From: Phycisphaerae bacterium
Lineage (GTDB): Bacteria > Planctomycetota > Phycisphaerae > FEN-1346 > JAACEH01
Assembly: GCA_041690105.1 (NCBI GenBank)
Contig: JAWLHX010000003.1
Location: 29,126-93,125, forward strand
Reading direction: 5' to 3'
Length of the DNA stretch: 64,000 bases
This document shows, one piece after another, positions 33,641 through 56,079 of the stretch. The position numbers were made by a program, and so were the translations under genes. The notes under the pieces were generated by a model. It saw only the letters and a program-made list of their open reading frames with translations, made no database searches and was not told the origin of the DNA. The stretch's first letter is position 1. Each line of letters begins with the position of its first letter.

Positions 33641-34641
33641 GGATTCGATCCCCTTTCTGCCGCGCGGGGCCCGTTATGGGCAGCGCTTCGGCCGTGCCAG
33701 TGTGGCAGAGGATCGCCGGCGATGGGGCAGGGGCTTTTGGCTGAAGCTCGAAAAATCGCTGTGGGAGCGACCACTTGAGCAGGCCAATTAACTGCTACCG
33801 TCTCGCATTCTGGAGATGGAGGCCTAACAGTCGCCAGGAGATAGACTTAGGCATCATGCAACAAGGATTAATGGACGGTCGCCTCGATCTTTGCCGCAGC
33901 TATCGGGCTGCAGCAACCCCGCAGTTCCCCCGGCGATAACGTCTCCGCCGCAGAGGATTGGTGTCGGAAAGATGCGGTACGATTGCGACTTCAATGGATC
34001 CGGCCCCTTTTGATCAGTGGTTTCAGGTACAGAAACCGTTTATGAGGGCTTTACTTTTGAATTACGTCCATTTACTCGCTGATGATCATTAAATCTATCG
34101 TGCGGCGGTTGCAGCTCCAGCCCCAGGTTCGCCGGCCGCGGCTCCTGTATATCAGAATACCGTTGCCCGGGCGAACTTCAGCGACTCCGCGAATTGGCCG
34201 AATCGGCCCGGCGGCGTCGATTAACCAAGTTCGGACGCGGTGTCGCGGCATTCTGCCGCCAAGCCCCTGGCAAATTCCAGAGCGGGCCCAAATCCGAACC
34301 TTATTTAGAACAACCAGACAAATCGAATCAAACTTTATGACTTTTTAGTGTCTACGTCAAGCGCAAAGCGGCCACAGGCCGGCGGCGGGTGGGCCGCAGG
34401 GAGTGTCGGCGGTTACCTGCTTGCCGCTCAATGCCCGGCTGCGACTGTGTTTGATGCTTGTCAGCAGGGCGGCGGAACCCTACAATCCACGTATTCCAAG
34501 CGTGTGTTCGGGGTCGAATAATATATCCGCCGGCTGCTGCCGGATGCGGGCGGTTCTGTCGGCTCTGCTTTCAATTTGAGCAAATCCGGTGCTTTTTGCG
34601 GGGGCCTGCCGTGTGCCTCGCCTGGAAAGAGATGAAAAACG

Positions 34642-35493
34642 ATGAGTTTTCGCACCCTGATGATAGGCGACATTGTCGGCAAACCCGGCCGCAGTGCAGT
34701 AGAAGCAATGGTTGGCAACCTGATCAAGAGCGAGCAGATCGACCTGGTAATTGCCAACGCCGAGAACAGTGCCGCCGGCTCCGGAATTACTCCTTCAATA
34801 TATGATGGCCTTCGCCAGGCCGGTGTGGACGTCATTACCATGGGCGACCACTGCTACCGGAAGAAGGAATCGATCCCCCTTTACGAGACCAAGGACCGCT
34901 TGCTGCGCCCGGGTAACCTGCCTGAGGTGGCGGCCGGACGCGGCTGGTGCGTGATCGAGACCCGCAACGGCTCGCACGTGGCGGTCATCAACATGCAGGG
35001 TCGCACCTTCATGAAGCCCATCGATTGCCCATTTGCGGCCATGGATCGGGCCCTGGAGGAGATCGGGCAGATGACGCAGCTGGTGTTTGTCGATTTCCAT
35101 GCCGAAGCCACCAGCGACAAGATGGCCATGGGCTGGTTTCTGGATGGCCGGGTGACGGCCCTGGTGGGCACACATACCCATGCCCAGACGGCCGATGAGC
35201 GGGTGCTGCCGGGCGGCACGGCCTTTATCAGCGACCTGGGCATGAGCGGGCCGTACGACAGTGTGCTGGGCCGCCGCAAGGACCGTGTTATCCGCCATTT
35301 GACTACGGGCATGCCGACCTTCTTCGAGGTTGCCACCGGCGACGTACGCGTCTGCGGGGCGATTATCACCGCCGATGAGCAGACGGGGCGGGCTACGAGC
35401 ATTCGCCGTATAAATCTCTCGTACGTGGCCGAAGCCGACCAGGCCTACGACGCTGCCGACGGCAAGGGTGGCGGCGGAGGAGACGAGATCTGA
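34642..35493 (+). CDS. ymdB: YmdB-family metallophosphoesterase (2',3'-cyclic-nucleotide phosphodiesterase-like, TIGR00282)
   Basis: MSFRTLMIGDIVGKPGR...ANAENSAAGSGIT...GDHCY...GTHTHAQTADE metallophosphatase motifs typical of YmdB; classic genomic partner of rny (divergent here). Confidence 0.8.
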   Translation: MSFRTLMIGDIVGKPGRSAVEAMVGNLIKSEQIDLVIANAENSAAGSGITPSIYDGLRQAGVDVITMGDHCYRKKESIPLYETKDRLLRPGNLPEVAAGRGWCVIETRNGSHVAVINMQGRTFMKPIDCPFAAMDRALEEIGQMTQLVFVDFHAEATSDKMAMGWFLDGRVTALVGTHTHAQTADERVLPGGTAFISDLGMSGPYDSVLGRRKDRVIRHLTTGMPTFFEVATGDVRVCGAIITADEQTGRATSIRRINLSYVAEADQAYDAADGKGGGGGDEI

Positions 35494-35746
35494 AGCCAGG
35501 AAACTTCGGAGCGTAGCAGTAACTGGCGCGCGGCGGAAATTTGAGGGACAGAAATGGTCAATCTGGATTTGCGAGGAAGCCTCTGGTTCAAGATTGGATT
35601 CTTCTTCGGACTGGGTTTGACTGCGTCAGGGGTGCTTGCCTGGGTTGTAGTTTATGTAGCAACCTGGGTATTTTCATTCTGGTTCTTATAAAGCAATACG
35701 GTCGGTGGGGGCGCCCACCGGTGTCGGTATTGAATGATAATAGAGT

Positions 35747-37486
35747 ATGGCCAAGAAGAAGCGACAGAACAGTCTGTTTGACGATGTGCCGCTGTTTGAT
35801 CCCCAACGGGTCAAGCTGCCCGATGATGCCCCTGCGCCCACGGGCGATGATGATGACGATGCAGGCGGTAGTGCCGGCAAGGTTGGCAGTGGCGGCGGTA
35901 GTGCGGCGGGTGGCAAGGTGCGGGGGCGTAAGGGCGGCAGGCGACGGAAATCGGCCAGTGTCTCGCTGGTGCCGGAGTCGGACGAGTCCTCTTCTGCAGA
36001 GTCCACATCGGGCGCAGAGGGCGGGGCGGCTTTGGTGGCGGCCAATGGTTCGCGCGAGCAGCCACTTACGGTCAGCCAGCTATCCCAAGGCATTGCCGAT
36101 GTGCTGGAGGTCTGCCTGTCGCGCGTCTGGGTGGTGGGCGAGGTGAGCGGCCTTAAGCGGGCGGCCAGCGGGCATTTGTATTTCGATCTGAAGGACGGCG
36201 AGTCGCTTATCTCATGCGTCATGTGGCGGAGCGATGCCGGACGGTTGCGGATGGACGTGGAGGACGGGCTTGAGGTTCTGGCTCAGGCCCGGGTGGGCTA
36301 CTACGGGCGGAGCGGGCGGCTTCAGTTATATGTCAGCCTGCTGGAGATGCGCGGGGCGGGCCTGCTGGAGCTTCGATTCCGGCAGATGAAGGAGCGGCTT
36401 GAGGCCGAGGGCCTGTTTGCCGCGGAGCGCAAGCGTGCCCTGCCTGAGTTTCCTTCGACCATTGGCGTGGTGACCAGCGGAACGGGGGCGGCTGTTCGGG
36501 ATATTTTTCACGTTCTGCGTCGGCGGTGGCCGGCAGTGCGGGTGATTCTGGCTCCGGTACGGGTGCAGGGCGAGGGTGCCCGGGAAGAGATTGCCGCCGC
36601 GGTGCGTGCCTTCGACCGGCATCTGTCGGACGTGGTGGACGTGCTGATTGTGGGACGCGGTGGCGGCAGCCTGGAGGACTTGTGGGCCTTCAACGAGGAG
36701 TGCGTGGCCCGGGCGATAGCCGATTGCAGCATTCCGGTGGTAAGCGCAGTGGGGCACGAGACCGATTTTTCGATCAGCGACTTCGTGGCCGATGTTCGTG
36801 CTCCGACTCCTTCGGCGGCGGCCGAAATCGTGGTGCCCGATTGCCGGGAATTCCAGCGGCGGCTGGGCAGTCATGCGGGCCGACTGGTGCGGGCCATGAC
36901 CGGCCTGCTTCAGACAGCGGGCCATCGGCTGCATCGGCTGGCGGAACATCGCTTTTTCAAGTATCCTGAGGAGATTGCCGGACAGGCAGCCATCAGGCTG
37001 GACGATTTGCAGCAACGGCTGAATCATGCGCTGGTTGGACGAATTGTCCGCCAGGGCGAGCGACTGACGAACATCGAGCGCCGCCTGTTGCAGCAACGGC
37101 CCAGTCGGCAACTGGCTCTGCGGGTGGCAGCCCTTGAGCAACTTGCCGGACGACACCGCTCGCAGGCCGATCGTCTGCTGGAGCGGGCCCGGGCCCGGGT
37201 TGACCGGCTCGGCGACCGGCTGGAGGCCCTGAGTCCGCTGGCGGTGCTGGGGCGCGGCTACAGTATTACCCTCAACCGGAGCAGCGGACGAGCGGTGCGA
37301 CGAGCGGCCGATGTTGAAGCAGGGCTTGAACTTGAGACGCTGCTGGCTGATGGCGATCGGATTCGCAGCACGGTCAGCGACAGCGAGGCTGGCCGCGACG
37401 GGCGGCCGACGGCGGCTCCGGACAATGCGGGCACTAATGAACGCGGCGGAATGGACGACGAAGACGGGAGCAGGCGAGATGGCTAA
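35747..37486 (+). CDS. xseA: Exodeoxyribonuclease VII large subunit, with ~110-aa low-complexity N-terminal extension
   Basis: OB-fold and catalytic core (VWVVGEVSGLKRAASGHLYFDLKD...GVVTSGTGAAVRDI...VIVGRGGGSLEDLWAFNEE). N-terminal Gly/Asp/Lys/Arg-rich tail before the OB fold. The antisense 401-aa ORF is a shadow. Confidence 0.85.
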   Translation: MAKKKRQNSLFDDVPLFDPQRVKLPDDAPAPTGDDDDDAGGSAGKVGSGGGSAAGGKVRGRKGGRRRKSASVSLVPESDESSSAESTSGAEGGAALVAANGSREQPLTVSQLSQGIADVLEVCLSRVWVVGEVSGLKRAASGHLYFDLKDGESLISCVMWRSDAGRLRMDVEDGLEVLAQARVGYYGRSGRLQLYVSLLEMRGAGLLELRFRQMKERLEAEGLFAAERKRALPEFPSTIGVVTSGTGAAVRDIFHVLRRRWPAVRVILAPVRVQGEGAREEIAAAVRAFDRHLSDVVDVLIVGRGGGSLEDLWAFNEECVARAIADCSIPVVSAVGHETDFSISDFVADVRAPTPSAAAEIVVPDCREFQRRLGSHAGRLVRAMTGLLQTAGHRLHRLAEHRFFKYPEEIAGQAAIRLDDLQQRLNHALVGRIVRQGERLTNIERRLLQQRPSRQLALRVAALEQLAGRHRSQADRLLERARARVDRLGDRLEALSPLAVLGRGYSITLNRSSGRAVRRAADVEAGLELETLLADGDRIRSTVSDSEAGRDGRPTAAPDNAGTNERGGMDDEDGSRRDG

Positions 37487-45401: not shown

Positions 45402-46775
45402 TCAGCTTGCCGGTACGATTTGTGGCGGGGTTTCGCCTGCTTCGGTCATGCGCTTAATGAGTCGGGCGGCCAGTTCGGTCCGGACATCGGCCAGTGCCGG
45501 ATCGGCAACAAGATTGTTCTTTTGATGCGGATCGGCCAGATTGTCGTAGAGGTAGTCTTCGGCGTAGAGGTCACTGTCGGGATAGTCGACTCCGCTGAGC
45601 TCCGGGGCCCTGACGCTGTAGGTCCAGCGGTGGGTGCGGATGGCCCGGCCGACGTGGCTTTCGCTTATCTGGACAAAGACGTCGTCGGGCCAGTCGGCGG
45701 GGGCTTCGCCGCAGGCCAGGGCTTGCAGCGGCCGGCCCTGCATGGTTGGCAGAGGCTGACGGCCACCGGCGGTCAGCACGGTTGGCGGCAGGTCGATCAG
45801 GCTGACCAGTTGCTCCACCACTTTGCCGCCGGTAAAGCCTGGGCCGCGGATTATCATCGGGATACGCAGGCAACTGTCGTGACAGGATCGCTTGTATTCC
45901 CCGTTGCGGGTGCGGAAGTGGCAGCCGTGGTCGCTGGTATAGATGATCAGCGTATTGTCCAGAATGCCCTGCCGCTGGAGTTCCTGGCGGATTCGTCCGA
46001 AGTTGGCGTCGAGACTGGCGCAGCAGCCGAGGTAGTCCGGATAGTTTTCGCGCCAATCGCCATCGGTTCCGCGGAGATCGCCGGGTACGTCAAAATCGGC
46101 GAATCGCTGTTTGCTGCCTTCGGGCCCTTCGAAACGGTTGTGGTCGTTCTGGTGGTGCGGCTCGATGTATGACAGAAACATGAAGAATGGCTGGCTTTGG
46201 CCCTCGCGGCTGCGCAGATACTGCAGGGCAAAATCGGTCTGGCAATCGGCCCGATAGCCCTTGAATTCCACCTTGTTCATCTCGGCGTCAAACATGAATC
46301 CATCGTAGCCATGGCTGGTTGATTCCAGGGTATCGGCCGCCATCCAGAACTCGTTCCACCCGCCGCGGCGCTCGGGCGGGGTGGCCACGGTGCGGTAATT
46401 CTGCTCCGGAATCTGCTGCTGGCCGACTTTGCCGCCACTTGAGGCCAGGTGCCATTTGCCGACGTAGGCCAGGCTGTAATCGGAATCGGCCATTTCGTGG
46501 GCGATGGTGCGCTCGTCTTGCGGCAGGGCGATATGGTTGCGGAAGCAGCCGATCTCGGTGGCGTATCGGCCGGTCTGGAGGCACGAGCGGGCCGGGCCGC
46601 AGACGGGCTGACAGGTGAAGGCCCGGTCGAATCGGACGCCCTCGGCTGCCAACTGGTCCAGGTTTGGCGTTATGTTCAGCCTTTGGCCGTAGCAGCCCAT
46701 GGTGTCCCAGCGTTGTTGATCGGAGAAGACGAAAAGGATGCTGGGCCGGGAGTCGGGGGCGGTCATAATTGTCAT
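45402..46775 (-). CDS. Sulfatase (formylglycine-dependent arylsulfatase family)
   Basis: SILFVFSDQQRWDTMGCYGQ and the C-x-P-x-R formylglycine motif (CQPVCGPARSCLQTG); 457 aa. Confidence 0.85.
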   Translation of the reverse strand: MTIMTAPDSRPSILFVFSDQQRWDTMGCYGQRLNITPNLDQLAAEGVRFDRAFTCQPVCGPARSCLQTGRYATEIGCFRNHIALPQDERTIAHEMADSDYSLAYVGKWHLASSGGKVGQQQIPEQNYRTVATPPERRGGWNEFWMAADTLESTSHGYDGFMFDAEMNKVEFKGYRADCQTDFALQYLRSREGQSQPFFMFLSYIEPHHQNDHNRFEGPEGSKQRFADFDVPGDLRGTDGDWRENYPDYLGCCASLDANFGRIRQELQRQGILDNTLIIYTSDHGCHFRTRNGEYKRSCHDSCLRIPMIIRGPGFTGGKVVEQLVSLIDLPPTVLTAGGRQPLPTMQGRPLQALACGEAPADWPDDVFVQISESHVGRAIRTHRWTYSVRAPELSGVDYPDSDLYAEDYLYDNLADPHQKNNLVADPALADVRTELAARLIKRMTEAGETPPQIVPAS

Positions 46776-47116
46776 TCCTGATGAAGGTTGTGGTGACCAA
46801 ACGTCTTGGCAGGACAGAAAATAACAGATGGCGGCCGGCTGGTCAATGTAATCGGCAGGGCGCGCCCTGGCGGGCTCAGGTGTCCAGCGGAGGCGGGCAA
46901 AAACTGCCTCTGGGCAAAGGTCGTATTATATTCCCGGCTAAAGACTTAGGGGGATTCAGGCAAAATGCGATTGGTTGGCTGCGGGTAGTCATGGTAAAAT
47001 AGATAAGGAGAAAGTAGGATTCAGTCCGATAAGCATAGGAGGCGATACGTTTGTCGTCCGCTTGCCGGTGGTGCTACCGGCCGAAGTCGGACTGGGATGT
47101 TTCCGGGAGGTGCAAG

Positions 47117-48664
47117 ATGAAGGCCATGAGAATAGCGGCTATTGTGGCGATCGTGGGTATTGTGGCGACGCCGGCCTTCTCCCAGTTGCAGCAGCCCGAC
47201 AGGCGTCTGGACCTGAGCACGCAGCCGACGTACGCTCCGTTCGGCCAGATGCCGCAGGATTATCGCGACTCGCCCAGCCTCTATTCCAGCGGCAATGTGC
47301 GTTACGGGCGAGCCTTTACGGGCAACCGCAATTTTCTTGAAGACCGTTACTTCAGTTCGCCCATCACCCGTTTCCAGCGCGACAGTTTTGGTTCGTACGA
47401 CGTTTATGGCGGCGGCAGGCAGTTTGGTGCGGCCCAGCCGTATTACGCTCCGGGCAGCCTTGTTTCGCGGGGCGACCTTGGCCGTGGAGCTACGGAGGTT
47501 GGCAGGCGGCCAGATCCATTCGGCATCGCGGCATCGCCTCCGCCGTCGTTTGCCGGTCCGGTCGATCCGGAACTGGACCGTCGGGTGATCGTGCCTGGTT
47601 CGGGGCCCCGGGCTTACACCCTTGAGCCATCCGCCGACAATGAGGATGCCTACGGCTTTGCTCCGCGGACGGAAGTGCCTTGGATGAACCAGGAGGGCAT
47701 GAGAAATCTGCAGGCAGCCATTGCGGCCCAGGAAGCTGTCAGTGATATGTTCGGACGCGGGCCCTTCGGCACGCCTCTGCCGCTGCAATGGCAGATGGAT
47801 CCGACTGCCGGCAGCGTTGAGGGCGAATTGCCGAACCCGTGGATTCTTCTGCCGGAGGAGGTTCGCCAGGGTTTGACGCCGGAGGAGGTCGAGCCGCCGC
47901 AGAATGGCGATCCGATGGCCGGCATCCGCCAGCGGTATTGGGAGGATCAGGAGCAGTTGGAGGCGGATTCGCTTCCGCCGTGGATGACTCCGGGCGAAGG
48001 GCGTTCGATGGAGGACCGTCTGCGCGAGGGCGAGGCTGAGCGTGACTCGTTTGGCGAGACCAATGGCGAAGAGCGTTCGGCTCTGACGCCTGACGAGATG
48101 TTGCCGCAGGGCGGCCCGCTGCACCCGGCCAATTTCGGCCAGAGGGCGATCAGGGTCGGGCGGATCAATCTGCAGGTTGGGCTTTATCGGCAGGCCATTG
48201 AGCAATTCGAGCGTGCGGCCACCTTCGACCGGAGCCTGCGCGAGGAGGCCAACAGGTTGGAAGGCCATGCCCACCTGCTGATCAGGGGCAACCGGATGGC
48301 GGCCCTGCTGATAAGCGACAGCATTGAGAATAGTCCGGAGCTTTACGGGCGCGATTATCGCCTGACCACTATTGTGGAAAACCAGGAGTTGTGGCAGCAG
48401 GCGGTCGAGCGAATTGGCCGGCAGGCCGACGATATGCCGCGGGCTACCATGTACCAGTTTCTGCACGGGTACCTGCTTTATGGGCTGGGGCGGCACGGGG
48501 AGGCCGAGCCCTACCTGAAGGCGGCAGCAGTGGAAGGCAGCCAATATGCCGAGGCAGCCCGAGCGCTGCTGAAGCAGGGTGAAGCGCAGGAGCAGGGTCA
48601 GGAACAGGCGCCGGAGCAAGGTCAGGAGCAGTCGCAGGATGCGGCCGAACCGGTGACGGAATAG
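47117..48664 (+). CDS. Secreted protein with long Pro/Gly-rich disordered region, C-terminal helical (TPR-like) domain and a QEQG low-complexity tail
   Basis: Likely start at internal ATG ~47117 (MKAMRIAAIVAIVGIVATPAFSQ signal peptide); the track ORF begins at 47051 in the same frame. The antisense 576-aa ORF is a shadow. Confidence 0.55.
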   Translation: MKAMRIAAIVAIVGIVATPAFSQLQQPDRRLDLSTQPTYAPFGQMPQDYRDSPSLYSSGNVRYGRAFTGNRNFLEDRYFSSPITRFQRDSFGSYDVYGGGRQFGAAQPYYAPGSLVSRGDLGRGATEVGRRPDPFGIAASPPPSFAGPVDPELDRRVIVPGSGPRAYTLEPSADNEDAYGFAPRTEVPWMNQEGMRNLQAAIAAQEAVSDMFGRGPFGTPLPLQWQMDPTAGSVEGELPNPWILLPEEVRQGLTPEEVEPPQNGDPMAGIRQRYWEDQEQLEADSLPPWMTPGEGRSMEDRLREGEAERDSFGETNGEERSALTPDEMLPQGGPLHPANFGQRAIRVGRINLQVGLYRQAIEQFERAATFDRSLREEANRLEGHAHLLIRGNRMAALLISDSIENSPELYGRDYRLTTIVENQELWQQAVERIGRQADDMPRATMYQFLHGYLLYGLGRHGEAEPYLKAAAVEGSQYAEAARALLKQGEAQEQGQEQAPEQGQEQSQDAAEPVTE

Positions 48665-48686
48665 TCTGAAGTTCAGAATTTTGCAC

Positions 48687-48715
48687 AAGGGCGGGCCATG
48701 CAGGCTCGCCCTTTT
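48687..48715 (+). terminator. Candidate intrinsic terminator between convergent genes
   Basis: AAGGGCG-GGCCATGCAGGCT-CGCCCTT followed by TTTCG, 23 nt after the 47117..48664 stop. Confidence 0.5.
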
Positions 48716-48908
48716 CGCATGGACTCGGGACCAGTGTGTGAAGCGTTCCACACCGAGAAGCCGCCTCTTGCCTCTTCACACTTTGGCGCCTGCTTCGCCA
48801 TTCGACAGGCTCATGACAGGCAGTCGCTCCAAAGTGTGGCACCCAAATTGCGACTCGATGGTGACACCCAAGCTGCGCCTCGATTTTGACCCACTCACCA
48901 GCGGGCGA

Positions 48909-51026
48909 CTATCGTTGCAGTAGCAGGATTGCTGTTGCCACCGCTGCGCCGAGGAGCAGGGCCAGCAGTATCCAGCGTCCGAGGCGATGCGTGCCCAGCG
49001 ATCCCGGCGGGTATTTTGGACGCCTGGTGAAGTAAAGTCGCTGGGTGCGGCTGAGTCGCATGCGGGCATTGATGGCCCAACCCGACCCTTCGAGTATGGC
49101 GCTGAGGTCGCGTCGTCGCAACTTGACGAGGGCCACGATGCTGGTTGGCAGCATGACGGCCAGGATGGCTCCGCCGAGTCCCGCCAGTATGATCCACCAG
49201 TTAAGGCCGGCCAGGGTACGGGTGATGAAGGCGGTGGCCGAGCCGAGGGCTGCCACGGCAATTCCGCCGCCCATCAGGAGATTTCCTGAGATTGCTGCCC
49301 GCTGTGCCTGGGGCGGGGCGGGTTCGGCTGCCGCGGCCTGCTGCGGGGCGGTTCCTTCCACCTGGGCAAAGGCCGTAGTGCCGGCGACGTCGAGCTTTTT
49401 TTCGGCCTCGGTGGTCATGGATTCGATTTTGCCGGTCAGCAGGCGGCCCAGTCTCTGGAATGGGGCCCAGATGGCCTCGGCCAGGCTGATCGGGTTTTCG
49501 ATGATCTGCAGTGTGCGGGCATCGAACTCGCGTCCAGTAATGTCGAGGAAAATGCCGCGCTTGCCTACGGCCAGGTTGCCCTTGTCGCCGCTTGTTACGG
49601 GAATGGCCACTTCGTACGGCGGATTTGCCGCCACCTCCAGATACATGACATACATGTTGCTGGTTTTGGAGAGCTCGATGTGCTGCGGGCGACTGTCGAC
49701 GCGGACAGCGAAGTTGAATCGTCGGCCATCCATGATCAGCGTGCCCATTTCGAACATAGCCCGGCTGGCTGGCTGATAAAGGTGCGGGAAGCTGACGAAG
49801 TTGTTGGCCAGGTCAATCATGTGAGCCTGGTAAAGGATCAGCTTTTCGGTCAGTCTGATGGTATCGAGGGCGAAGGCGGTGGCGGCACTTTCGGCCAGCA
49901 GGCTTTCGGCGGCTTCGGCATATTCCGGGCGGAGGAACATTCTCAGGGCATCGCGGCCCAGGGGCTCGACGGCGGGGCCTGCCTTGCTTTCCAGCCAAGC
50001 TTCGTGCGGGGCCAGTGCCGCGGCAATTCGCCTATAGTCGTCTTCCGACAGTTGGCTGACGTTTCGCTCCAGTATGGGCTCGGCGACCTTGGTGCGGAAT
50101 TCCTCCAGCCGCTGCCTGTACCACGGATTAAGAGGGGCGGCAAGGTCGAGTATGCCATCGGTTCGCAGGTCGGTCAGCGGGCTGCGCTTTAAGAGGTCGG
50201 CAATGGCCTCGGAATTCTCGAAGTCGGTCTGCTCAAGCTGGGCCGCAGGGGGCTTTACCTGGGCGGTTACCCGCGGATCGAAAGCGGCGGCCCGGCTCTG
50301 GGCGTAATATTTTTCCAGCTGATCTCGGATGGCCATCCAGGCGGCCATTGCCGCGGGGGTCTGCTCGGCCAGAGGCATTATTGCGGTGGGCGTCTCGGGT
50401 GCGGGCAAATCGGCCTTGGCTGCCCAGTCAAGGTAGCTCCTGGCTTCCTGCAGAAACCCGGTGATGTGCTGTCGCGTCACGCCCTGTTTTCCGCCCGGAT
50501 GCGCAGTCCCGCCAACGGTATCGAGCACGGCCTTCAGGAACTGTCGGACTTTTTCATCATCGGCGGCCTCGGGCAGGGCAATGCCTCCCTCGCTGACCGG
50601 CGTCTGGGTCACCTGCTGCTTTATCTGCCGCACCTCGTCCAGGGAGACGGTCTGCTCGTCCGGACGTCCGGCCCGGATGAGTATCCGCCTGACGGCCTCG
50701 AGAATGGTGCGACCGTCGGGGTGCGAGGTGTTGATGTCGGCAATGGTCAGGGTGAGCTTTTTATCGGTTACAGGCTGATGATTCTGCAGAAGTTGCAGGA
50801 GCCAGCTGATGGCGGTCCGCATGTCGTCGCAGGTTATGCGGCCATCGCTATCGATGTCGATGAGCGAAAGGAGCGTGGCATCGGCCCCCAGCATATTGAG
50901 CGGAGCGCTGGTGGCGACCCAAAGGGCCTTGTCGAGCTGCAGTATGTGCTGCAATTCATCGGCCGATTTGATGCTGAGGTGCAGAGAGCGTCCGAATCGT
51001 CGGAATCGCATGTGTCGTTGCGGCAT
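48909..51026 (-). CDS. Uncharacterised 705-aa protein with an N-terminal EF-hand Ca2+-binding loop and C-terminal membrane anchor (2-3 TM helices)
   Basis: DIDSDGRITCDD fits the canonical 12-residue EF-hand loop; C-terminal hydrophobic segments (GNLLMGGGIAVAALGSATAFI..., WWIILAGLGGAILAVMLPTSIVALV, WILLALLLGAAVATAILLL). Confidence 0.55.
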   Translation of the reverse strand: MPQRHMRFRRFGRSLHLSIKSADELQHILQLDKALWVATSAPLNMLGADATLLSLIDIDSDGRITCDDMRTAISWLLQLLQNHQPVTDKKLTLTIADINTSHPDGRTILEAVRRILIRAGRPDEQTVSLDEVRQIKQQVTQTPVSEGGIALPEAADDEKVRQFLKAVLDTVGGTAHPGGKQGVTRQHITGFLQEARSYLDWAAKADLPAPETPTAIMPLAEQTPAAMAAWMAIRDQLEKYYAQSRAAAFDPRVTAQVKPPAAQLEQTDFENSEAIADLLKRSPLTDLRTDGILDLAAPLNPWYRQRLEEFRTKVAEPILERNVSQLSEDDYRRIAAALAPHEAWLESKAGPAVEPLGRDALRMFLRPEYAEAAESLLAESAATAFALDTIRLTEKLILYQAHMIDLANNFVSFPHLYQPASRAMFEMGTLIMDGRRFNFAVRVDSRPQHIELSKTSNMYVMYLEVAANPPYEVAIPVTSGDKGNLAVGKRGIFLDITGREFDARTLQIIENPISLAEAIWAPFQRLGRLLTGKIESMTTEAEKKLDVAGTTAFAQVEGTAPQQAAAAEPAPPQAQRAAISGNLLMGGGIAVAALGSATAFITRTLAGLNWWIILAGLGGAILAVMLPTSIVALVKLRRRDLSAILEGSGWAINARMRLSRTQRLYFTRRPKYPPGSLGTHRLGRWILLALLLGAAVATAILLLQR

Positions 51027-51186: not shown

Positions 51187-52575
51187 TTACAGGCATTCCG
51201 GCAGGTTAATGCTGTCGGAGCCGGGCTGCAGGATGCTTCGCAGTTGGTAGAATCGCTGCTCCAGGCGATGGCGATCGTAAGGTTCGGCAAGGGCGGCGCC
51301 GACCCGTTGGGTCATCAGTCCTTGGTGCCAGAGGACCTCTTTTCGGTCGGGCAGGGTGGTGCGACGGGCGATGCGTATAAGGTTTTCCATGATGCGCACC
51401 AGAGTTGCCGGTGAACGGGTAGCGTTGTGGCGGATCTGGTCAAAAGATATGTCGCAGAGACCGCGGAAGTCAGTCCGCCTCATTATTACTCGGAGCCGCC
51501 CCTGCTGGTCGCGCAGTCCGGACGGAGGCATGTGGCGTTGAGCAATTCGCAGCATGGCGTCGCCGATGTAGTCGAGAGCATTGCCGGCCGTAAAGGGATC
51601 GTTAATGCTGGGCGAGAGAGCCCGCAAGGCCACTTCGACCAGTTCCTGGATGACGAAGTCAAGATCCTGCGTGGCGCTTCGCTGGGCCCCGATGTAAAGG
51701 CTGTCATGCAGCTTGCGGGTCAGCTCGTCGCTTAGCTGTTGGGCCGGCAGCAGCCTGATGAGCGGCTCGTCCTGGACGACAAAGTCGCCGGGTTGGCATA
51801 CCAGGCGTATCTGCAGATCGTGTTTGACGGCCAGCGACATCAGGATCTTGAGGTCGACGGCCTGCAGATATCCGGTATCGGGTGCGCTTACACTTGCGGC
51901 CTCGCTCCATGGCGGTTCGGTAATAGGTACCTCAGTCTCTGGGGCACTGTCGGGACGGGAATTAGCCGGGCCGTCGCTCCTGTGTTCGTCCAGGCAGTCG
52001 GGCAGCACACGGTCGATGGTCTGGCGCAATTCTTTGGAAACGACCATCAGCACATGCGGGGCCTGGATGCTCTTGGCCAGGTGGTGCATGAAGTAGATGA
52101 GCATAGCCAGGCTGATCAGGCCGAGCAGCAGGGCGACCATGGTAGTCAGCTGAGGCAACCTTTTGGGGTCCGAAGTAATAACGCGCTCCATAGCCAGCAA
52201 CAGAACCTGGAAGTAGATGAAGGTGGCGACGAAAACGCCGAGAACCAATTGGTTGACCTTGTCGCGCATAAAGTTGCGCAGCAGTCGCGGGCCGAGCTGA
52301 CTTGCGGCCAGGGTCAGGGCCACGATTGTTATGGAAAACACCACGCCCAGGACAGTGATGATTGAAGCGGCCATGGATGAGAAGAGAGCCCTGGAGCTGT
52401 CGATGTCGGTAATTGACATCCACTGGTTGACCCACTCAGGCCAGGCCAGTTTCAGGTATTCATCGATGTATAGTAAAGCGAACGCCAACAGTAGGGCGGC
52501 CGCGGCCATGGCTGCCGGCACAAACCAGAAACTGGTGGTTAGCCTGTCGGCCAGTTGCTGTAGCCAGGTTTTCAT
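51187..52575 (-). CDS. DUF2254-family membrane protein
   Basis: N-terminal 4-5 TM helices followed by a ~250-aa soluble domain; overall layout and size (462 aa) match DUF2254. Confidence 0.5.
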   Translation of the reverse strand: MKTWLQQLADRLTTSFWFVPAAMAAAALLLAFALLYIDEYLKLAWPEWVNQWMSITDIDSSRALFSSMAASIITVLGVVFSITIVALTLAASQLGPRLLRNFMRDKVNQLVLGVFVATFIYFQVLLLAMERVITSDPKRLPQLTTMVALLLGLISLAMLIYFMHHLAKSIQAPHVLMVVSKELRQTIDRVLPDCLDEHRSDGPANSRPDSAPETEVPITEPPWSEAASVSAPDTGYLQAVDLKILMSLAVKHDLQIRLVCQPGDFVVQDEPLIRLLPAQQLSDELTRKLHDSLYIGAQRSATQDLDFVIQELVEVALRALSPSINDPFTAGNALDYIGDAMLRIAQRHMPPSGLRDQQGRLRVIMRRTDFRGLCDISFDQIRHNATRSPATLVRIMENLIRIARRTTLPDRKEVLWHQGLMTQRVGAALAEPYDRHRLEQRFYQLRSILQPGSDSINLPECL

Positions 52576-53054: not shown

Positions 53055-53714
53055 ATGCCGGAGCCTGTAACCATTATCGGGTTTGGAGCTGGTGTGCTGG
53101 GTGTGGCCACTCATTTGGCCAGGCGCTACTTTGATTCGGCGAAGGAGGTGTTCGACATCATACTTGGTTGCATGCTTTTTGTGGCCATATTGCCGCTCAT
53201 GCTGCTGTGTGCGTTGCTGATCAAAATCAGCGACCGCCATGGTCCGGTGATTTTCTCACAGGTCAGGACGGGACGCAACGGCAAGCCGTTCACGATGTAC
53301 AAGCTTCGCTCGATGTACCGTAATGCGGAGTCGGCCAGCGGGGCCGTGTGGGCTGAGCGTGACGATCCGCGGATCATGCGTCTGTGCCGCTGGATGCGTT
53401 GGAGCCACGTTGACGAGTTTCCGCAGCTGATCAACGTGATCAAAGGCGATATGTCGATTGTCGGGCCACGACCCGAGCGTCCGGAAATCATGGCCGAGCT
53501 GGAGAAGGTATATCCGGAGGTTCGCAAGCGTCTGGCGGTTCGGCCCGGCATTACTGGCCTGGCCCAGGTGCGTAACGGGTACGACACAAGCGTTGAGGCT
53601 TTTCGTCACAAGCTGCTGAGCGATCTGGAGTACATTGAGACGCGTCGCTGGAGCAGCGAATTAAGGATCCTGGCCGCCACGGCGACCAAGCTGGTCGACC
53701 GAACGGCCCATTGA
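53055..53714 (+). CDS. Bacterial sugar transferase (polyprenyl-phosphate glycosyl-1-phosphate transferase, WbaP/EpsB-like C-terminal domain)
   Basis: GPVIFSQVRTGRNGKPFTMYKLRSM...DEFPQLINVIKGDMSIVGPRPERPE is the PF02397 signature; first gene of the PEP-CTERM-associated EPS locus. Confidence 0.85.
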   Translation: MPEPVTIIGFGAGVLGVATHLARRYFDSAKEVFDIILGCMLFVAILPLMLLCALLIKISDRHGPVIFSQVRTGRNGKPFTMYKLRSMYRNAESASGAVWAERDDPRIMRLCRWMRWSHVDEFPQLINVIKGDMSIVGPRPERPEIMAELEKVYPEVRKRLAVRPGITGLAQVRNGYDTSVEAFRHKLLSDLEYIETRRWSSELRILAATATKLVDRTAH

Positions 53715-53901
53715 AGGGCGGATTATCAGGCTGTCGTGCTGGTGTTTCGGAGACGCTGCACGACGGCAGTCGAGACAAGTTGAGCTGTCATGGGGGCTGC
53801 CAACGGCTTCCGGGTTTTGCGGCAGTGTTCAGCATCGGGATAGTTGGCCGGAGGCGATGGTATCGCTGCCGGAAAGAGGGACCTGAGGGGGAGGATTTAA
53901 T

Positions 53902-54600
53902 ATGAAGTATGCAACTGGGGCCGTCGGAATCGTGTTGTTGCTGCTGGTAGCAACTGGCAGCGCTTCCGGGGCTTTGACCGACTGGGGCAGCGGTCAGGTC
54001 AGAATGGTAACTGACGCCGATGAAGGGTTCATGCCGGGGCGTGAGATTTTACAGGCCTGGCACAAATACGATGCCGGCACGCACTATTTCCGGATTGACC
54101 TGGAGACGGCGCCCATGGGGCCGCCGCATTTGCCGCCGAGCTTTGCCGGCATTTATGGCTTTGCCATCAATACGGACCTTGCCAGCGGGGCCGACGGCTT
54201 TCATCCGTACCTGGCTTATGCCCCGAACGTGCAGAACATCGATTATCTGATCGATGCCCACTATGAATCGTTTTCGCCGTACCCGAATCCGGCCCAGTTG
54301 CTGTACAGCCATTATCACGACTGGGAGGATACGGCGTTTGCGGTCGAGCCGCTGGACAGCGTTGGCGGGCAGTTCCAGCGCAGCGGACCGAGCACGCTGG
54401 AGTGGTCCATTGCGGATGATCTGATCGGCAGCCCGGGAGCCACGAGGTTCAGCTGGTGCGCCTACAGTCTGGATGCCGGCAGCGAGACGGCCAAGTATGA
54501 CCTGGCCTGCTCGTTCATACCGGAACCTCTGACAATGCTGGCTTTCGGTATGGGGCTGGCTGGCGTGGGCGGTTATGTGCGCCGCAGGATTAAAGGCTGA
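53902..54600 (+). CDS. PEP-CTERM-anchored secreted protein, paralog A (uncharacterised ~200-aa domain)
   Basis: Signal peptide (VGIVLLLLVATGSASGA); C-terminal IPEPLTMLAFGMGLAGVGGYVRRRIKG PEP-CTERM sorting signal; ~55% identical to paralog B. Confidence 0.75.
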   Translation: MKYATGAVGIVLLLLVATGSASGALTDWGSGQVRMVTDADEGFMPGREILQAWHKYDAGTHYFRIDLETAPMGPPHLPPSFAGIYGFAINTDLASGADGFHPYLAYAPNVQNIDYLIDAHYESFSPYPNPAQLLYSHYHDWEDTAFAVEPLDSVGGQFQRSGPSTLEWSIADDLIGSPGATRFSWCAYSLDAGSETAKYDLACSFIPEPLTMLAFGMGLAGVGGYVRRRIKG

Positions 54601-55380
54601 AGATGAGAGTTTTGTGAAGAGGTTGAAACTTGCCGACCCGGCCGCGGGAGCAGTGTCCCGGGGGTCGGCAAGAGCTTGGAGTGGTGCAGGCTGTAACGTG
54701 CTGCGAGTGCTGTACATCAGAATGCGGCATTGAAGCGTAGGACTATGGGGATAGTTGCTGCAAGCGCTTTGAATGCCTGTCGTACGAGGGAAAACCGAGG
54801 GGGACTGCGGCCGGCGTTTCTGGTTGCTGCCTGGCGACTTGTGCCATTGTGGTGCGGGTTGCGGCAGTGCCGAAAGCCGTCGGTCGCGGGCGACGGAAGA
54901 ATCTTCGCCTGCTGTCATCTGGGGCGGAGGCCGATCGGAACGGAGCGATCGGTTTGGCGTGTCCGTCGTCGGGTGCGACTGCGGAAAAGGATTTTGCGCA
55001 GTTCACCGTCTTGCTGAGTGCGGGTGACTGATTCTGCTGAAGTTACTGGCAGGGTTGGCGCCGCCGGCATGGCCGCAGAGCGGCCGGAATGGTTCCTTCG
55101 TACGAAAGGCGTTGACATGAGCGTGATGTTCGGCAGGAAACTTACCAGCATTACAGTTGCCCGCCATCGCGAGTACCCTCTGTGGGTATGGCCACGCCGC
55201 GTACGAGTGTGTGAACCTGACCAGCCAATCGAAGCCGAAGCATCAGTTGGACAGACGGCCTGTGTTTGTGGAGGGTCTGCCTGCTGGAAAACTCTGCGCA
55301 GAACATCGGCCGGGGATAAACTCACTTGCGGTCACGACGGGCGTGGCCAGAAGAAACAACTCGTTAAGGGGGACACTGTA

Positions 55381-56079
55381 ATGAACAAACTGCGTGTACT
55401 GACAACTTTGATTGTGCTGTTGCTGATGTGTAGCCCATCGTGGGCGGCGTTGACAGATTGGGGCGTTGGAGCTGTTGAGCATGTTGCCGATCCGGATGAG
55501 GGCTTCATGGCCGGCCGCGAAATTCTTAATGCGTGGCACAAGTACGACGTGGAGAGCCAGATGCATTTCTTCAAGATGGAGCTGAAGGCTGCTCCGATGG
55601 GGCCTGTCCATCTGGAGCCGAGCTTCGCCGGCATCTACGGATTTGCCCTGAATACCGACCTTGGCACGGGTATTGACGGCTTTACGCCGGGCTTGACCTA
55701 TGCTCCGAATGTGCCTTCGATTGACTATTTGATTGACGCGCATTACGAGTACGCGGGCATTCTGGCTGCTCCGCCTGCCTTCCAGGTTGCCCATTATCAT
55801 GAATGGGACGAGCCGCTTTTTGTTACCGAGAATCTGCTCTCGATTGGCGGCGACTATGCACGCACCGGCAAAGTTCTGGAATGGGCCGTGCCAGACAGCC
55901 TGATCGGCAACCCCGGTTCCGAGCGGTTCTCCTGGTGCGCCTACACGCTTGACGGCGGCAGCGAGACGGCCAAGTATGACGTGGCCTGCTCGGTTATTCC
56001 GGAGCCGCTGACCATGGCTGGTCTTGGTCTGGGGCTGGCCGGCGTAGCGGGCTACCTGCGTCGTCGCAAAGCGGCCTGA
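55381..56079 (+). CDS. PEP-CTERM-anchored secreted protein, paralog B
   Basis: Start at ATG 55381 (MNKLRVLTTLIVLLLMCSPSWAALTDWG; AGGGGGA RBS); the track ORF begins at 55018 in the same frame. C-terminal IPEPLTMAGLGLGLAGVAGYLRRRKAA. Shared blocks with A: ALTDWG, EGFMxGREILxAWHKYD, PSFAGIYGFAxNTDL, IDYLIDAHYE, RFSWCAYxLDxGSETAKYD. Confidence 0.75.
   Translation: MNKLRVLTTLIVLLLMCSPSWAALTDWGVGAVEHVADPDEGFMAGREILNAWHKYDVESQMHFFKMELKAAPMGPVHLEPSFAGIYGFALNTDLGTGIDGFTPGLTYAPNVPSIDYLIDAHYEYAGILAAPPAFQVAHYHEWDEPLFVTENLLSIGGDYARTGKVLEWAVPDSLIGNPGSERFSWCAYTLDGGSETAKYDVACSVIPEPLTMAGLGLGLAGVAGYLRRRKAA

Follow-up and report, generated by a model that had tools for sequence, protein, structure and literature searches.

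The window analysed here, a stretch of 64,000 nucleotides (nt) from a Phycisphaerae bacterium (GenBank assembly GCA_041690105.1, contig JAWLHX010000003.1, positions 29,126 to 93,125 of the forward strand), contains at 48909..51026 on the minus strand an open reading frame (ORF) for a protein of 705 amino acids (aa), closed by a TAG stop. A preliminary description of the window had claimed this ORF, and the ORF list bears it out as a complete, real gene, whose start codon agrees with the N-termini of its homologues. The protein carries an EF-hand near its N-terminus and three predicted transmembrane (TM) helices at its C-terminus. Neither the architecture of the protein nor the 85% of it that lies outside the EF-hand, itself a module already known, has a counterpart in Pfam, NCBIfam or PDB.

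The loop DIDSDGRITCDD (aa 57-68; nt 50823..50858, minus strand; translation verified) matches the PROSITE-type EF-hand pattern, and shuffled copies of the protein match this pattern in 0.09%. Its ligand positions fit, so that the canonical EF-hand loop recognised in the preliminary description stands. We followed its conservation in the window's branch of the family (262 full-length members, with identities down to 29%) and in a sister branch (n = 117). Among the 262, position 1 of the loop is Asp in 257 (98%), position 3 Asp or Asn in 242 (92%), position 5 Asn, Asp or Ser in 243 (93%) and position 12 Glu or Asp in 255 (97%); position 6 is Gly in 227 and position 8 Ile, Val or Leu in 261. The strict pattern D-x-[DNS]-x-[DNS]-G-x-[ILV]-x3-[ED] is found in 196/262 members of the window's branch and in 105/117 of the sister branch, the consensus of the latter being DxDxDGR[VI]RxPE. 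Thus, on the question whether orthologues conserve the EF-hand match, on which the preliminary description had made its own claim depend, the motif is kept in both branches.

In the AlphaFold2 (AF2) model the helix-loop-helix unit spans aa 50-79 (50790..50879, minus strand), where helices 50-56 and 66-79 flank a short strand (63-65), with predicted local distance difference test (pLDDT) values of 91-96. The exit helix is predicted to run from loop position 10 and the strand to occupy positions 7-9, i.e. the geometry is that of a canonical EF-hand. Searched against the PDB, the superfamily profile retrieved EF-hand proteins only, all via residues 52-86 of the query, with CDPK at the top (E 7e-4) followed by dozens of calmodulins, and hhalign aligned one hand with EF3 of calmodulin (E 6.9e-4, probability 27%). 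EF-hand families were also the only ones to recur when Pfam was scanned member by member in panels of 30, 69 and 59 members (33/69, 22/69 and 20/69; 26/59 in the panel of 59). In the window protein itself EF-hand_7 reaches 17.7 bits vs a threshold of 30 (aa 53-105) and EF-hand_6 13.4 vs 25. Based on these sequence features we infer that the loop may bind Ca2+. The model contains a second helix-loop-helix unit with a strand at aa 103-140, and one weak alignment with CDPK spans aa 54-152; the EF-hand would probably pair with this degenerate unit.

The loop has further peculiarities. Unusually for an EF-hand, position 7 is Arg in 246/262 members and is conserved as Arg in the sister branch, too. 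Cys is found at loop position 10 (aa 66) in 128/262 members and at aa 48 in 154/262, and the two co-occur with an odds ratio of 2.4 (p 7e-4, phylogeny uncorrected). Cys48 and Cys66 might be a redox- or metal-sensitive pair, of which the window protein carries only C66.

An N-terminal hydrophobic, signal-like stretch was found in none of the 262 members, and the loop between TM2 and TM3 contains on average 10.8 Lys and Arg residues vs 2.6 Asp and Glu residues. From this lack of a signal peptide and, by the positive-inside rule, from the basic loop we predict a cytoplasmic location for the N-terminal part of ~580 residues, which contains the EF-hand, and for the basic loop itself; the C-terminal tail, which is variable, would be on the opposite side of the membrane. 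A Ca2+ site in this location would read cytoplasmic and not envelope Ca2+. The preliminary description had counted the protein among the envelope proteins, an assignment that does not agree with the EF-hand being predicted on the cytoplasmic side of the inner membrane.

The AF2 model of the entire protein has a mean pLDDT of 82.9 and a predicted template modelling score (pTM) of 0.63. The N-terminal domain (aa 1-205; 50412..51026, on the minus strand like all following segments) is composed of a beta-hairpin and three helix-loop-helix units, the first being the EF-hand, and is modelled with pLDDT values mostly above 88. It is followed by a bundle of long helices without known relatives (aa 220-411; 49794..50369), a small, highly conserved core modelled as a PilZ-like beta-barrel (aa 412-514; 49485..49793) and a long helix (aa 515-552; 49371..49484; helix 515-557 in the model). 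A flexible and variable low-complexity linker rich in Ala, Pro and Gln (aa 553-580; 49287..49370; pLDDT below 50 at 553-590) leads to the membrane part. There, TM1 (aa 581-606; 49209..49286; detected by hydropathy, AF2 helix 584-606), which is Gly/Ala-rich with a 'small-xxx-small' pattern, forms a hairpin with TM2 (aa 610-634; 49125..49199) via an outer loop of ~3-7 residues. The basic loop KLRRRDLSAILEGSGWAINARMRL... (aa 635-680; 48987..49124) is the most conserved segment of the protein, and the poorly conserved TM3 (aa 681-705; 48912..48986; hydropathy 2.66, AF2 helix 682-704) ends the chain. The two to three C-terminal TM helices that had been proposed as a membrane anchor are thus three by hydropathy and AlphaFold, but the term anchor understates the conserved TM1 and TM2-TM3 loop.

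Approximately 85% of the protein has no sequence match in Pfam, NCBIfam, PADLOC, PHROG or PDB, and PDB searches, whether started from the protein itself or from the profile of its branch or of the superfamily, yielded nothing but EF-hand proteins. The earlier statement that the long soluble region belongs to no recognised family holds across all these libraries. Matches to Virul_Fac (SrfC), IcmF_helical, DUF7937, Rv1476 and holin-X were dropped, being sporadic (at most 4 members) and sub-threshold. As to structure, the best neighbours of the conserved core are PilZ domains, with which it would share a small six- or seven-stranded barrel and a subsequent helix. A divergent PilZ-type barrel might render the protein a membrane-bound receptor for cyclic diguanylate (c-di-GMP) or another nucleotide messenger, possibly integrating Ca2+. 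Of the c-di-GMP motifs of PilZ domains, however, [DN]xSxxG occurs in 1/262 members and a properly spaced combination of RxxxR and [D/N]xSxxG in 0/262. A canonical PilZ domain is ruled out by these missing motifs, and we regard a divergent nucleotide receptor as very improbable.

Conservation is distributed unevenly along the chain. It is highest in the basic loop (aa 635-675; 0.74), TM1 (0.70), the end of the bundle (aa 398-411; 0.69) and the beta-domain (0.66). The EF-hand region has a value of 0.56, and the lowest values are those of TM3 (0.29) and the linker (0.27). The Gly/Ala-rich character of TM1 persists in the sister branch. Residues invariant throughout the superfamily include D57, G428, R435, H449, Y462, G491, P512, P522, R639, W650 and N653, and the polar residues D433, R435, H449, T478, K/R489, N511, R639 and N653 are invariant or nearly so in both branches. 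This pattern would suit a Ca2+ site that is purely structural and stabilises the N-terminal domain, the activity residing elsewhere and the protein being a scaffold or an enzyme that is not regulated by Ca2+. Barrel core and basic loop might then bind or act on an anionic membrane-proximal ligand, e.g. a phospholipid head group, a lipid-linked precursor or polyphosphate. That conservation is higher in barrel and loop than around the EF-hand, that the polar residues listed above hardly vary and that degenerate EF loops are tolerated in ~12% of the members all argue for such a role, whereas the retention of the four side-chain ligand positions at 92-98%, despite ~25-30% identity, argues against it, and no catalytic family or fold is recognised. 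On balance we consider a structural site possible but rather unlikely.

The membrane hairpin bears on yet another explanation, i.e. that the protein is a pore-forming, holin-like or toxin-like protein that permeabilises membranes. Weak Foldseek matches to the ClyA-family toxins PaxB, XaxB and AhlB (E 0.04-0.8) and sporadic sub-threshold holin-X matches on the TM1-TM2 hairpin point in this direction. Yet the toxin matches have template modelling scores of 0.10-0.16 and probabilities of at most 0.28, the holin family PF07332 scores 18.2 bits vs 28.4 and appears in at most 4 members per panel, and the relatives occur in housekeeping contexts. Viral contigs and phages carry none of them, and neither PADLOC nor PHROG gives a match. 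A permeabilising function is thus extremely improbable.

The family is large. A word-indexed search found at least 490 relatives of the window protein, the best 120 of which are all full length (674-775 aa, 45-52% identity), lack Pfam domains, are named 'hypothetical' and come from metagenome-assembled genomes of Phycisphaerae/Planctomycetota. A family profile made from 30 members and searched against 1.84 billion representatives at 50% identity matched 2,598 clusters at E ≤0.001 and 995 at E ≤1e-30. The best 150 profile matches listed are mostly ~650-790 aa long and cover nearly the whole profile; the shorter minority among them look like fragments. Reference genomes encoding the family include those of Phycisphaerae, Bryobacterales and other Acidobacteriota, Calditrichia, Lentisphaerae, Verrucomicrobiota, Kiritimatiellia, Desulfobacteraceae, Myxococcota and Spirochaetes. 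The proteins of the sister branch (~720-760 aa) are ~28% identical to the window's branch and align end to end with the window ORF (E 1e-68 to 1e-80). Both branches included, the relatives retrieved make up at least 7,918 clusters at 90% identity, and the superfamily spans Planctomycetota, Verrucomicrobiota, Acidobacteriota, Calditrichia, Desulfobacterota and Gammaproteobacteria. Cultured members are found in Rheinheimera sp. MMS21-TC3, Opitutales bacterium ASA1 and Chromatiaceae bacterium AAb-1. All source names read 'hypothetical protein', except that the Joint Genome Institute (JGI) labels member P0071 'F0F1-type ATP synthase assembly protein I'; no library reproduced this label, and it was discarded.

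The sister branch was reached via a chance tblastn match to a remnant on the Aeromonas salmonicida plasmid pBY3 (NZ_CP060033.1; 1733..2120 of the retrieved locus), and from there via a gammaproteobacterial chromosomal relative. The remnant, for which the record has no annotation, stems from a truncated sister-branch gene (~130 aa); it continues in frame into an unrelated membrane ORF and lies beside tetR(Y)/tet(Y) and an ISVsa3 transposase; its neighbour is, judged from the translation, presumably a C-terminal fragment of the GMP-synthase GuaA (guaA). An origin in mobile elements or defence systems was rejected, as viral contigs and phages carry no relatives and plasmids only this one truncated remnant. 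The gammaproteobacterial relative, on contig_433 of ENA ERZ1714335 (4858..6828 of the retrieved locus), is full length and split into at least 4 frames. Since the neighbouring genes for alkaline phosphatase, GluRS and 6PGD are fragmented as well, these breaks indicate long-read frameshift errors and not pseudogenes. Member P0130 (925 aa), located on a 3.7-kb contig, has a C-terminal DUF481 outer-membrane domain, and this fusion is probably a gene-calling artefact; in other long members the extra length consists of low-complexity tails only.

In the window, the 705-aa ORF is adjacent to a gene for a DUF2254 protein (51187..52575, minus strand; PF10011, E 1.3e-115), which is membrane-bound, too, but unrelated to it in sequence. 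The two genes do lie on one strand and are separated by 160 bp, as initially described. However, because that strand is the minus strand, the DUF2254 gene is located upstream of the 705-aa ORF and not downstream, as the preliminary description had it. The 160 bp between them yielded no terminator-like site. On the other side, an ORF on the plus strand (47051..48664) is convergent with the gene. Its probable start is an internal ATG (nt 47117), which gives it the signal-peptide-like N-terminus MKAMRIAAIVAIVGIVATPAFSQ. Of its earlier designation as a convergent, secreted, disordered or TPR protein, the convergent orientation and the signal-peptide-like N-terminus can be retained, but all TPR matches are sub-threshold (best 18.4 bits vs 25.7). 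Its first ~300 residues are rich in Pro, Gly, Arg and Glu. An antisense ORF of 576 aa (47021..48751, minus strand) overlaps it completely; this antisense frame is the usual high-GC artefact and the plus-strand ORF the plausible gene.

EF-hand protein, DUF2254 protein and secreted TPR protein had been proposed to form a Ca2+-responsive envelope module. The close spacing of the DUF2254 gene on the same strand, the gap without a terminator-like site and the convergent TPR gene are compatible with this idea, but conservation is not. In tblastn searches extending up to 6 kb to each side, the window's DUF2254 was found at 0/83 homologue loci and so was its TPR protein (0/83). Clustering of all flanking ORFs revealed no neighbour family at more than 13/84 loci, and the most frequent one (13/84) has no fixed side or strand. 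In eight contexts with independent gene calls the neighbours are all different, unrelated and of housekeeping type, including UbiB/phasin and VIT-VWA/SecA, ABC ATPase and GTPase, TruB, CinA/Fpg/adenylate kinase, TonB receptors, Band_7/ATP-grasp and HrpA/porin. The 705-aa gene is therefore a stand-alone gene among housekeeping genes, and its adjacency to DUF2254 in the window is most simply coincidental. Co-occurrence across genomes was the very check on which the preliminary description had staked the module, and neither partner was found near the gene at the 83 homologue loci; with the EF-hand domain also predicted on the cytoplasmic side, the three-gene module is refuted, and we give it next to no probability.

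The wider surroundings agree with the earlier account, which placed the gene between a sulfatase and a locus for exopolysaccharide (EPS). The sulfatase gene (45402..46775) flanks the region on one side, and genes for a Bac_transf sugar transferase (53055..53714) and, by Pfam match, a PEP-CTERM protein (53902..54600) follow on the other. The C-terminal half of ORF 55018..56079, compared by eye in the translations, resembles a paralogue of the product of 53902..54600 and has the same PEP-CTERM-like tail. Together, the genes at 53055..56079 look like an exosortase/EPS-type locus. Across the entire window, no tRNA genes and no Rfam families at gathering score were found. The GC skew is ~0 in the first ~34 kb and then +0.08 to +0.20 up to the end of the window; the change near 34000-36000 could reflect a switch in the dominant coding strand or a replication-related boundary.

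Taking these findings together, we tentatively favour, at not quite an even chance, a stand-alone inner-membrane protein that functions as a cytoplasmic Ca2+-responsive switch with its membrane module as the effector. The first ~580 residues would be cytoplasmic and the last ~125 would constitute a conserved three-helix membrane module. The canonical EF-hand of the N-terminal domain may serve as input, i.e. a rise (or loss) of cytoplasmic Ca2+ would fill or empty it, and its occupancy might alter the conformation or the oligomeric state of the cytoplasmic assembly, in which a helical bundle and then the PilZ-like beta-barrel, the conserved core, would follow the EF-hand domain. This change may be relayed to the basic loop next to the membrane and to the TM1-TM2 hairpin with its many Gly and Ala residues. 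Loop and hairpin would act as effector, either as an oligomeric pore or channel or by offering a docking site to a membrane partner encoded elsewhere in the genome. TM1, which has a small-xxx-small face, and the basic loop are very highly conserved, which speaks for an output function of the membrane module and against a passive anchor.

Several observations weigh against a switch of this kind. In every member scanned the Pfam scores for EF-hands are below the gathering thresholds, and only a single EF-hand (aa 52-86) is detectable by sequence with hhalign and the PDB profile; unpaired EF-hands are often weak binders. Loop position 9 is often Arg, Met or Leu, which is atypical, and the full PROSITE-type pattern is present in only 62/262 members; the loops of ~12% are degenerate, as mentioned above. 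The window protein itself has Asp instead of Glu at loop position 12, like 47/262 members, and Asp at this position tends to lower Ca2+ affinity as well as selectivity relative to Mg2+. With three TM helices per chain a pore would need oligomerisation, and the disordered linker speaks against a rigid mechanical coupling of the soluble and the membrane part. A more specific version, in which cytoplasmic EF-hand, new helical/PilZ-like core and glycine-zipper TM hairpin would make up an intracellular Ca2+ sensor-effector at the inner membrane, e.g. an oligomeric channel gated by Ca2+ or a protein that senses membrane damage or an influx of Ca2+, is in our view unlikely.

Whether Ca2+ is a true intracellular second messenger in bacteria is debated, cytoplasmic sensors being the missing piece (PMC13599509, PMC9132961). 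With its conserved EF-hand, which is predicted to be cytoplasmic and is fused to a conserved membrane module, the family described here is a concrete and testable candidate for such a sensor. If the sensor-effector version were true, bacteria would have in this family a first widespread and dedicated cytoplasmic Ca2+ effector of the EF-hand type. The family spans thousands of sequence clusters in at least 6 phyla, and its cultured carriers Rheinheimera sp. MMS21-TC3 and Opitutales bacterium ASA1 open it to genetics and biochemistry. It also marks a sizeable gap in the databases, as neither Pfam nor NCBIfam has a model for it and its fold outside the EF-hand matches no solved structure.

The loop of the 705-aa protein resembles EF-hands of the calmodulin/CDPK type (Pfam EF-hand_1/5/6/7) in having 12 residues with Asp, Asp/Asn, Asp/Asn/Ser and Glu/Asp at positions 1, 3, 5 and 12, Gly at position 6, Ile or Val at position 8 and two flanking helices. 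Unlike calmodulin-type proteins, it contains one recognisable hand with a conserved Arg at position 7 and frequent Arg, Met or Leu at position 9, and this hand is part of a 705-aa integral membrane protein. Among bacterial proteins, EfhP (PA4107) of Pseudomonas aeruginosa has two EF-hands, is predicted to be periplasmic and binds with a dissociation constant of 13.7 uM (PMC9132961), and Caulobacter CaBP is reported to be a periplasmic EF-hand Ca2+ sensor (PMC13171946). Both are implicated in Ca2+ sensing and, like the 705-aa protein, have canonical EF-hand loops. Both are described as small, soluble and periplasmic with 2-3 hands, whereas the 705-aa protein has one hand, is predicted to expose it to the cytoplasm and has a conserved 3-TM module. 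Outside the loop neither of the two has any sequence relationship to it.

The barrel, in turn, may resemble the PilZ receptors BcsA, Alg44, YcgR and PlzA in its small six- or seven-stranded build and the helix that follows. In BcsA and Alg44 the PilZ barrel is located beside a membrane module of the same protein, just as in the 705-aa protein. A functional parallel for the proposed switch may be STIM1, although this is an analogy and not homology, as the hand of STIM1 faces the lumen of the endoplasmic reticulum and its membrane part is a single TM helix. In the EF-SAM region of STIM1 a canonical EF-hand and a 'hidden', non-binding hand control the conformation or oligomerisation of a membrane-spanning protein and thereby transmit the Ca2+ signal.

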